Part shown: one piece after another, positions 50,611 through 60,867 of the stretch
How the letters are laid out: each line of letters starts with the position of its first letter
Numbering within the stretch: position 1 is the stretch's first letter
From: Escherichia coli
GTDB lineage: Bacteria; Pseudomonadota; Gammaproteobacteria; Enterobacterales; Enterobacteriaceae
Direction: 5' to 3' (one strand)
Assembly: GCF_044324875.1 (NCBI RefSeq)
Contig: NZ_CP172185.1
DNA length: 64,000 nucleotides
Notes under the pieces: generated by a model
Database searches by the model: none
Told to the model about the DNA's origin: nothing
The model's input: the letters and a program-made list of their open reading frames with translations, nothing else
Made by a program: the position numbers and the translations under genes

Positions 50611-53600
50611 ATGGCAGGGAAAGCGCATGGGAATGGCGATCGTCGGGGCGATAACACCATATGTGGATTGGGGGATCGTCTACGTCGTCTGACCGCCGGT
50701 ATTTGCCTGATAACACAAACTATTTTCCCTGTTATGGCTGCTGCCCCTACGCATATTAACCCTGCGCATTCGGATACTGCCGCGTCACTGATCCTGCCGA
50801 ACGTTAAAACTATTCCATATACCCTGGGTGCGTTGGAATCGCCACCAACGGTCGCGGCACGCTTTGGTATCACCGTTGATGAATTACGTCGCCTGAATCA
50901 GTTCCGTACCTTTGCGCGGGGCTTTGACAATGTGCGTCAGGGCGATGAAATAGATGTGCCCCTCATTAACAGTAACAGCCCTGAAGCGCGCAACCTGAAA
51001 GCAATGCAGATGGAGCGCGACGGCAAAGATCCGCAAATGCAGGTCGCGGAAGTGGCGCAGCAAAGCGGAACACTTTTAGCGCGCGATATGGACAGCGAAC
51101 AGGCGGCGAGTATGGCGCGTGGCTGGGTGGCTTCTTCTGCATCTGCGCAGGCAACGGACTGGCTCAGTCGTTGGGGAACTGCCCGGGTATCTCTTGGTGT
51201 GGATGAAGATTTCAGCCTTAAAAGCTCGTCATTTGAATTTCTCCATCCCTGGTACGAAACGCCTGATAACCTGGTCTTCAGCCAGCACACACTTCACCGT
51301 ACGGATGATCGCACTCAAACCAACCACGGTATCGGCTGGCGTTATTTCACATCGAGCTGGATGTCTGGCGTCAATATTTTTATCGATCATGACCTGACCC
51401 GCTATCACACCCGAACCGGGATGGGCGTTGAATACTGGCGCGATTACCTGAAACTGAGCGGCAACGGTTATCTGCGCCTCAGTAACTGGCGTAGTGCACC
51501 GGAACTCGACAATGACTATGAAGCACGTCCGGCGAACGGTTGGGATCTTCGCGCCGAAGGCTGGTTACCGGCCTGGCCGCAGCTGGGCGGCAAGCTGGTC
51601 TATGAACAATATTATGGCGATGAAGTGGCGCTGTTTGGTAAAGACGAGCGACAAAACGATCCTCACGCGATTACCGCAGGTTTGAGTTACACCCCCGTTC
51701 CCCTGATCTCCTTTAGTGCCGAGCAACGGCAGGGCAAACAGGGAGAAAACGACACCCGAATTGGTATGGAGTTGACGTTGCAACCTGGTCATTCACTGCA
51801 AAAACAGCTCGATCCGGCTGAAGTTGCAGCTCGGCGCAGCCTTGTGGGCAGTCGCTATGACCTGGTCGATCGTAATAACAATATTGTCCTCGAATATCGC
51901 AAGAAAGAGCTGGTACGGCTGACGCTGACCGATCCGCTGAAAGGCAAGCCGGGTGAGGTTAAATCGCTGGTTTCTTCCTTACAGACCAAATATGCGCTGA
52001 AAGGTTATGACATCGAAGCCGCCGCCCTGCAATCAGCGGGCGGAAAAGTAGCTGTTTCCGGCAAGGATATTCAGGTCACCATTCCTCCCTACCGATTCAC
52101 GGCAATGCCTGAAACCGACAACACTTACCCGATAGCGGTTACAGCGGAAGATTCGAAAGGAAATTTCTCCCGGCGTGAAGAAAGTATGGTGGTCGTGGAA
52201 AAACCCACACTAAGCCTCGCCGATTCAACGCTTTCTGTCGATATGCAAATCCTGCTTGCTGATGGAAAATCAACCTCAACGCTGACCTATACCGCGCGAG
52301 ATTCCAGCGGCAAGCCGATCCCCGGTATGACGTTAAAAACACAGGCAAAAGGTTTGCAGGATTTCGCCTTAAGCGAATGGAAAGACAACGGTAACGGAAC
52401 CTATACCCAAATAGTTACCGCCGGGAAGACGTCTGGCGCGTTATCGCTGATGCCGCAATTTAACGGCGACGATGTTGCTAAGACGCCAGCGCTGATTGCT
52501 ATCGTGGCGAATACGGCATCCCGTGCTGACTCCACGATTGAGACAGACCAGGATAATTACGTCGCGGGTAAGCCGATAGTCGTTAAAGTGACCCTGAGAG
52601 ATGATAACGGCAACGGGGTTACCGGAAGAAAAGAACTTCTCAAACAAGCCGTTAAAGTAGACAACACGAAGGCAGATGCCGTTAGTGCCTGGACGGAAGA
52701 AAGTGAGGGAATTTACAAAGCAAGCTATATGGCTCATCTCATTGGCGACAAATTAACGGCCCAGCTGACGATGCCCGGCTGGCAAACCAAACATTCGGAT
52801 GCGTTCAGTATTGCGGGTGATAAAGATACCGCCAAAATCGCTGCGATGCAGATCACCGCGAATAACGCAGTTGCCAGACGCGATCACAATACCGTCGCTG
52901 TGACGGTCAGGGATGTGCATCAAAATTTACTGCAGGGACAAAATGTTACCTTCACGGTCGTGAATGGTGCGGCGGTTTTTGCCGATCCAAATGGCGGTAT
53001 TGTGACGACAGATAAAGACGGGATTGCCAGCGTTAACCTTGCCAGTGACCAGGCGGTAAACAGTCTTATCAAGGCCGAGATCAATGGCAGTAGTCAGTCT
53101 GTGGAAGTGAGCTTTATCACTGGCGATATCTCGCAGCTGACTTCCACCATCAAGACGGACGATGTGTCATACACCGCGGGTGGCAAGATAAAAGTGTCAG
53201 TCACCCTTATGGATGAGCAGAAAAACCTGGTGAAAGGGATGGCTTCGCTGCTGGCGGGTAGCGGTGTGGTCGAGGTGAGCGGTACAGATAAAAATGAAAC
53301 GGGTACCTGGAGCGAAGAGTCTGACGGCGTTTATACCACCACCCGAACCGCGAAGATTGCTGGCGATCGCCATTACGCCACGCTGAAACTATCGACATGG
53401 AGTAGCGCGCAGCAATCCGATGCGTATGCCATCCGCGAAAGCGGAGCTGTGCTGGCTTATTCCTCCATCGTTACCGACAAAACGACCTACACCGCGGGCG
53501 GTGCGATAAAAGTTACGGTAACACTCAAGGATAGCTATGAAAACCTGGTCGGGGGGCAACGAGACGCTGTCAACCAGGCTATCCAGCTGCCAAATACAAA

Positions 53601-60867: not shown

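Follow-up and report, generated by a model that had tools for sequence, protein, structure and literature searches.

What is the 10.26-kb open reading frame (ORF) that lies near the end of a 64,000-nucleotide stretch of Escherichia coli DNA (contig NZ_CP172185.1 of assembly GCF_044324875.1, here called the window), is it intact, and is it unusual? The window spans dnaA to the eip islet, and the ORF occupies positions 50611 to 60867 on the + strand. A preliminary description, made from the sequence alone, had taken it for an invasin/intimin-family adhesin matching Air/EaeX of enteroaggregative E. coli, with an uncertain start codon and an unusual length caused by its repeat array. We conclude, with a probability of about 95%, that the ORF encodes the E. 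coli type Ve (inverse autotransporter) adhesin Air/EaeX/IatC, and that this allele is intact and stands at the usual site of the gene, flanked by nepI and eilA in the eip islet. The gene, its regulator, the locus and the exact protein have already been named and are in public databases, and the feature is ordinary.

The identity was assigned with the NCBIfam IatC N-terminal equivalog domain NF040978, which aligned over its whole length (model positions 1-1065 to residues 1-1065) and scored 3,069.7 bits (cutoff 2,400). As predicted beforehand, the ORF is single and uninterrupted; the ORF list and its translation gave an ATG start, 3,418 codons followed by a stop, and zero internal stops, for a product with a predicted mass of 356 kDa. 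By megablast, a matching gene was found in 755 of 5,426 complete E. coli genomes. The air/eaeX/iatC coding sequence (CDS; 50611..60867, +) had RefSeq counterparts of equal length, and among the best 30 megablast matches every CDS measured exactly 10,257 nt and bore the name 'inverse autotransporter adhesin EaeX/Air' or 'IatC'. At NCBI, a protein identical over all 3,418 aa was already listed under EIQ9232742.1 and other accessions as 'inverse autotransporter adhesin IatC [Escherichia coli]'; it was found on 86 contigs of up to 5.8 Mb. The flanking housekeeping DNA was 97-98.6% identical to E. coli genomes, which ruled out another species as the source.

The surroundings of the gene were then compared with those of its orthologues. 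In strains EC6868 and GN06156 the order was uhpABCT, adeD, adeQ, yicN, a RelE/HTH (helix-turn-helix) pair, nepI, air/iatC and eilA, and beyond eilA came an IpaD-family gene, sctE, a chaperone gene and yicS, on to tRNA-Sec. The RefSeq orthologues occupied the same position, followed by eilA and by genes for an IpaD/SipD-family protein, SctE and a chaperone, and the earlier assignment to the eip locus with Air/EaeX and EilA was borne out. The order nepI, air, eilA and IpaD/SipD-like gene seen in the window was present in 11 RefSeq genomes inspected, and the prototype Air/EaeX of enteroaggregative E. coli (EAEC) 042 (EC042_RS21320) has the same arrangement of nepI, air, convergent eilA and eipD-like gene. 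A 12th genome, E200086, deviated. In that strain (locus L011, 7001-12718) iatC was truncated within the array and fused to the remnant of a type III secretion chaperone gene; the deletion had taken the 3' part of iatC, eilA and most of the eip islet. The same eip island has been described in the literature (PMC4210603; PMC3256949). Both the match to the IatC model and the synteny held when they were checked, and no evidence was found that contradicts the identity as Air/EaeX/IatC.

The start codon had been called uncertain since the residues after the ATG do not form a textbook signal peptide. An in-frame TGA lies two codons 5' of ATG 50611, so that this ATG is the most 5' start possible, and a Shine-Dalgarno-like AGGGA (50600..50604, +), which may serve in initiation, was read from the sequence 6 nt 5' of it. 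A hydropathy scan and inspection indicated an extended signal peptide at 50611..50739 (+, aa 1 to ~43). It would begin with a charged N-terminal extension of ~19 aa, followed by an n-region RLRR, an h-region LTAGICLITQTIFPVM and a c-region AAA; the n/h/c signal was placed by these two means at aa 20-45 and the h-region at aa 27-42. In relatives down to ~43% identity the motif I/L-C-G-x-G-x-x-L-R-R-L-T-A-G-I-C-L was kept and started 5' of codon 20, and all relatives compared carried a variable N-terminal extension. Two alternative starts were rejected: a start at the TTG of codon 20 would cut the conserved I17-C18-G19, and one at the ATG of codon 42 would leave the protein without its hydrophobic core. 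Since ATG 50611 is the only start 5' of the conserved motif, the NF040978 alignment runs from residue 1 and the RefSeq CDSs of EC6868 and GN06156 share this ATG, we take the start codon as settled, and the non-textbook N-terminus is read as an extended signal region.

Between the signal region and the barrel, a divergent, presumably periplasmic LysM was located at 50812..50967 (+, aa ~68-119) by a profile search and a predicted fold. Pfam LysM gave no match on a 1,200-aa piece and a weak partial match (E 0.03) on a 110-aa piece. When a profile of aa 60-125, built from seven relatives, was compared with PDB sequences, 4UZ2 was matched with E 8e-8, and LytE, MltD and CEBiP were matched as well. 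The AlphaFold model of this segment had a beta-alpha-alpha-beta fold with a core predicted local distance difference test (pLDDT) value above 90, and its best PDB matches were nearly all LysM-containing proteins, including the intimin LysM 2MPW (template modelling score, TM, 0.58). The profile and the predicted fold were clear, and the model points to a LysM of the kind found in the larger type Ve inverse autotransporters.

The inverse-autotransporter beta-barrel translocator follows at 51055..51900 (+, aa 149-430). The domain search recovered IAT_beta PF11924 at aa 149-423 with E 4e-108, and the barrel sequence matched those of invasin (4E1T, E 2e-80) and intimin (4E1S, E 3e-67). In the passenger, which follows the barrel on its C-terminal side, Pfam gave many Big_1 and Invasin_D3 matches, and an iterated hidden Markov model (HMM) resolved 28 Big_1-like domains, namely one partial and six full proximal domains, 16 in tandem and five distal ones. 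The proximal domains, a partial first one and six of the Big_1/Invasin_D3 type, are non-identical and were placed by Pfam and HMM at 51928..54063 (+, aa ~440-1151). The tandem array at 54064..58719 (+, aa 1152-2703) is made up of 16 Big_1 units, each 291 nt (97 aa) long; Tandem Repeats Finder gave its span as 54064-58713, and in the codon register it ends at 58719. The five distal domains, again non-identical, were found by Pfam and HMM at 58720..60222 (+, aa 2704-3204). Beyond them lie an invasin D4-type Ig domain at 60295..60549 (+, aa ~3229-3313; PF21764 E 1.3e-10, the alignment with 1CWV and the model) and a C-type lectin-like tip of the invasin D5 type at 60550..60864 (+, aa ~3314-3418), which was assigned from the sequence and fold of 1CWV. 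As in type Ve inverse autotransporters, the barrel precedes the passenger, the passenger carries Big_1 domains, and it ends in a lectin-like tip with a loop. The LysM segment, the invasin/intimin-type barrel, the long Ig-like series and the lectin-like tip that had been read from the sequence beforehand were all recovered.

A repeat array of this kind raises the question whether the assembly is correct. If the array had been collapsed, expanded or joined from different sources during assembly, the real gene would be shorter, longer or disrupted. A 4.66-kb array of 291-nt units, in which the longest exact in-register repeat is 365 nt, is badly resolved by short reads, and many database entries for air/iatC are fragments broken in the array, those returned by a word-indexed protein search being 1,240 aa or shorter. 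In addition, when the array was compared in register with the complete genomes that matched best, identity was only 87%, and over the whole gene no match exceeded 93.9%. Against EC6868, the window gene showed 98% nucleotide identity outside the array and 87% within it in register. The whole-gene value is as low as 93.9% because the array is 87% identical in register, its units being mosaic with their closest counterparts at other positions. The units themselves had a mean pairwise nucleotide identity of 85%, and most could be distinguished individually; units 4 and 14 of the 16 are identical in protein. The reading frame was intact through all 16 units, and complete genomes often carry 16-unit alleles with exactly this total length. 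Because the exact protein occurs on 86 independent contigs, one of them 5.8 Mb long, and under several NCBI accessions, we consider an assembly artefact very unlikely.

The homology of the barrel and the tip to both invasin and intimin could also mean that the protein is a true invasin or a true intimin, binding beta1 integrin or Tir, and not a separate member of the family. The tip matched D4-D5 of Yersinia pseudotuberculosis invasin (1CWV) with E 3e-19 by sequence. Its model (pLDDT 93.7) had 1CWV as the best fold match (TM 0.77), followed by C-terminal fragments of intimin (TM ~0.6). The whole protein has only four cysteines, and the only two in the passenger, Cys3337 and Cys3414, bracket a 78-aa loop in the tip. 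Invasin (1CWV, 4E1T) shares the homologous barrel and D4-D5 tip and has an equivalent disulphide loop of ~76-78 aa, reportedly between C907 and C982, but it has four Ig-like domains as compared with ~29 in the window protein. Intimin (Eae) of enteropathogenic and enterohaemorrhagic E. coli (4E1S, 1F00, 2ZQK, 2MPW) follows the same plan of LysM, barrel, Ig-like domains and lectin-like tip, whereas the window protein is far longer and lacks a Tir/LEE context; no LEE or Tir genes were found in the window. With the intimin model NF033627 the score was 389 bits (cutoff 1,400) and only the barrel region (aa 149-529) was covered, and the inverse autotransporter invasin Inv model NF040980 reached 266 bits against a cutoff of 710. 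Membership of either group was ruled out by these cutoffs. The tip was 25% identical to invasin and 15% to intimin. In the alignment, the integrin-binding Asp911 of invasin corresponds to Gln3341 and Asp811 to a threonine. As Asp911 aligns with Gln3341, the tip probably does not bind a receptor in the manner in which invasin binds beta1 integrin, and invasin-like integrin binding was rejected on this ground. That the protein is a true invasin or intimin is therefore extremely improbable, and the assignment to Air/EaeX/IatC is retained.

Other relatives of the N-terminus were also considered. In relatives that we take to be YeeJ-like from their N-terminus, the signal motif CGxGxxLRRLTAGICLITQ and the LysM segment both recur, at ~55-60% identity. 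YeeJ, an E. coli inverse autotransporter of ~2,359 aa, is the closest paralogue type at the N-terminus and has the same published domain plan (PMC6714894), but it lies at a different locus and has a different passenger without the array of 16 near-identical units. IatC of SMS-3-5 (EcSMS35_4024; Goh et al. 2019, PMC6714894) falls into the same family as the window protein under the NCBIfam IatC model, and its published plan of signal peptide, LysM, barrel, Big_1 repeats and C-type lectin is that of the window protein (PMC6714894).

The composition of the gene is uneven. The G+C content at third codon positions (GC3) rises from 0.55 in the head to 0.76 in the array and then falls to 0.45 in the distal Ig tail and to 0.32 in the tip, so that one gene is a mosaic. 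The tip resembles in its composition the AT-rich eilA (GC 0.35) and eip, and not the rest of the air gene.

We then asked whether the length of the gene is exceptional, as the preliminary description had suggested. The unit numbers were counted in annotated alleles from complete genomes. Twelve units were found in 2017-02-2CC (3,031 aa), 14 in MS 69-1 (3,224 aa), 15 in MRY15-117 (3,321 aa), 16 in EC6868 and GN06156 (3,418 aa), 17 in LR-62-2 (3,515 aa), 19 in E1 (3,709 aa), 20 in AR_0067 (3,806 aa) and 25 in strain 1190 (4,287 aa). The SMS-3-5 and XDL-type alleles measure 8,802 nt, which corresponds to 11 units, and the eleven alleles with known lengths therefore range from 11 to 25 units. Alleles with different unit numbers differed in steps of exactly 291 nt, apart from an additional 1 or 4 codons in the two whose tails were divergent. 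The prototype air of EAEC 042 measures 11,421 nt and encodes 3,806 aa, and is thus 388 aa (four units) longer than the window copy, whereas the ~11-unit IatC of SMS-3-5 falls 485 aa (five units) short of the window copy. The allele of AR_0067, which has the length of the 042 air, was 98.7% identical to the window protein in the first 1,151 aa and 99.0% in the 715-aa tail and had the same tip class; it has 20 units as compared with 16, and the mosaic units stand in a different order. When the 756 matching records were sampled at 60 evenly spaced rows, the first 12 held alleles of 10,257 nt, and about one in four iatC-positive complete genomes carries an allele of this length. The window copy exceeds only the length range of 2,459-2,965 aa published in 2019 from 126 genomes (PMC6714894). 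We conclude that it is of ordinary length for air/iatC. A 2019 paper found no evidence for variability in repeat number, in contrast to the variation from 11 to 25 units observed here. The check thus removes a false lead about unusual length and, together with the N-terminal analysis, settles the start codon.

An intact gene need not be expressed. The gene might have been left silent as the ETT2/eip type III secretion system decays, a relic without natural expression; this would concern its expression and not its identity. According to PMC4210603, which cites Ren 2004, mutational attrition of ETT2 is widespread in most strains. In some genomes, among them E200086, iatC is truncated or the eip islet has been lost; no clear sigma-70 promoter was seen upstream of air, and the regulator and the tip are AT-rich. 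A stop-free ORF of 10.26 kb, however, would not stay open without selection. Ten alleles with 12 to 25 units were compared; each kept its frame up to one stop at the end, and conservation over the first 1,151 aa was at least 96%. In the window, eilA is intact, and EilA-dependent expression and phenotypes have been reported for strain 042 (PMC4210603). We regard a silent relic as unlikely.

Several observations weigh against the reading of the ORF as a functional Air/EaeX/IatC adhesin. The signal cleavage site, which would lie after Ala43 or Ala44, was placed by inspection only, and Pfam by itself makes no LysM call. The + strand upstream of air was scanned and no convincing sigma-70 promoter was found there. 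Both the tip, with its GC3 of 0.32, and eilA, with its GC of 0.35, are AT-rich, and AT-rich DNA is often silenced. Finally, the cloned IatC of SMS-3-5 showed neither autoaggregation nor binding to extracellular matrix (PMC6714894), so that the term 'adhesin' rests on biofilm and adherence phenotypes. Such phenotypes have been described. Cloned IatC of SMS-3-5 was surface-exposed and promoted biofilm formation in K-12 (PMC6714894). EilA, which is encoded on the 042 eip island, modulates the expression of eaeX/air, and its loss alters epithelial adherence and biofilm formation in strain 042 (PMC4210603). Air is listed as an adhesin under the name 'enteroaggregative immunoglobulin repeat protein' and serves as a marker in the polymerase chain reaction (PMC3256949).

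From the domain plan and by analogy with its relatives, the following mechanism can be proposed. The protein would be exported by Sec through the N-terminally extended signal peptide, as for intimin and invasin. In the periplasm, the divergent LysM may anchor the protein to peptidoglycan or dimerise it there, while a 12-stranded beta-barrel would be inserted in the outer membrane and the C-terminal passenger threaded out through it. The passenger is predicted to form a rod of ~29 Ig-like domains, 16 of them near-identical units of 97 aa, and this rod would reach ~100 nm if each domain contributes ~3.6 nm as in invasin. The rod would end in the invasin-type D4-D5 lectin-like superdomain with its Cys3337-Cys3414 loop, and this superdomain is the presumed receptor-binding tip.

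The adjacent nepI and the convergent HilA-like regulator had been named correctly in the preliminary description. On the 5' side, nepI (49225..50409, +) encodes a purine ribonucleoside efflux pump, assigned by NCBIfam NF007578 and by its position in RefSeq; the model scored 851 bits against a cutoff of 584 and aligned with aa 17-410 of the ORF 49177..50409. The spacing from nepI to the air ORF is 201 nt. On the 3' side, eilA (60919..62616, -) is convergent with air and encodes the HilA-family regulator of 565 aa; the gene is intact, was assigned by NF009037 (953.8 bits, cutoff 589) and lies at the position seen in RefSeq. In the 51-nt gap that separates the stop codons of air and eilA there is a hairpin (60880..60909, without strand) with a perfect 13-bp stem and a 4-nt loop, found by a terminator-like scan and in the sequence, and it is probably a bidirectional terminator. 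Further downstream, an eipD-like gene (62819..64000, -) for an IpaD/SipD-family needle-tip protein is cut by the end of the window. Its product matched TIGR02553 with E 1.4e-39, yet below that model's own cutoff, and RefSeq has an IpaD/SipD/SspD family protein gene of 1,350 nt at this position. A type II toxin-antitoxin pair at 48331..48654 and 48638..48997 (both -) separates yicN from nepI. It consists of a RelE/ParE-family toxin and an HTH (MqsA/NadS-like) antitoxin, stands at the same place in RefSeq genomes and is frameshifted in some strains.

Two features more distant from air were also observed in the window. At 7944-10428 there is a complete IS66-family element with ORFs at 8021..9559, 9609..9956 and 9953..10354 (all -), which encode the transposase and the accessory proteins TnpA and TnpB. 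The element appears to be inserted in or beside yidX and is absent at the same site in EAEC 042. An AT-rich islet (~35% GC) lies at ~36000-39200 between ilvN and uhpA. It contains an ORF of 500 aa (37657..39159, +) that gave no NCBIfam, Pfam or PADLOC match. A match to this ORF occurred in 1,110 of the 5,426 complete E. coli genomes, whose annotation splits it into two hypothetical proteins, and its 3' part differs from the 042 version.

Virulence typing of enteroaggregative and extraintestinal E. coli routinely uses air and eilA as markers. When the D4-D5 tip of the window protein (60208-60864) was compared with those of other alleles, including loci L006 and L010, at least three classes were seen, with at least 98%, 80% and 55% aa identity to the window. 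Such divergent tips on heads that are at least 96% identical suggest a cassette-like exchange or diversifying selection. Tentatively, and with rather less than even confidence, we propose that Air/IatC is a modular, rapidly diversifying adhesin, in which the stalk changes by steps of 97 aa through recombination in the array and the tip is swapped as a cassette. Intimin subtypes offer a precedent for a tip class that sets receptor specificity. If the length of the stalk and the class of the tip set the reach and the receptor specificity of the adhesin, the alleles would differ in host or tissue tropism. The variation of the array by whole units together with the divergent tip classes could guide the search for the receptor.

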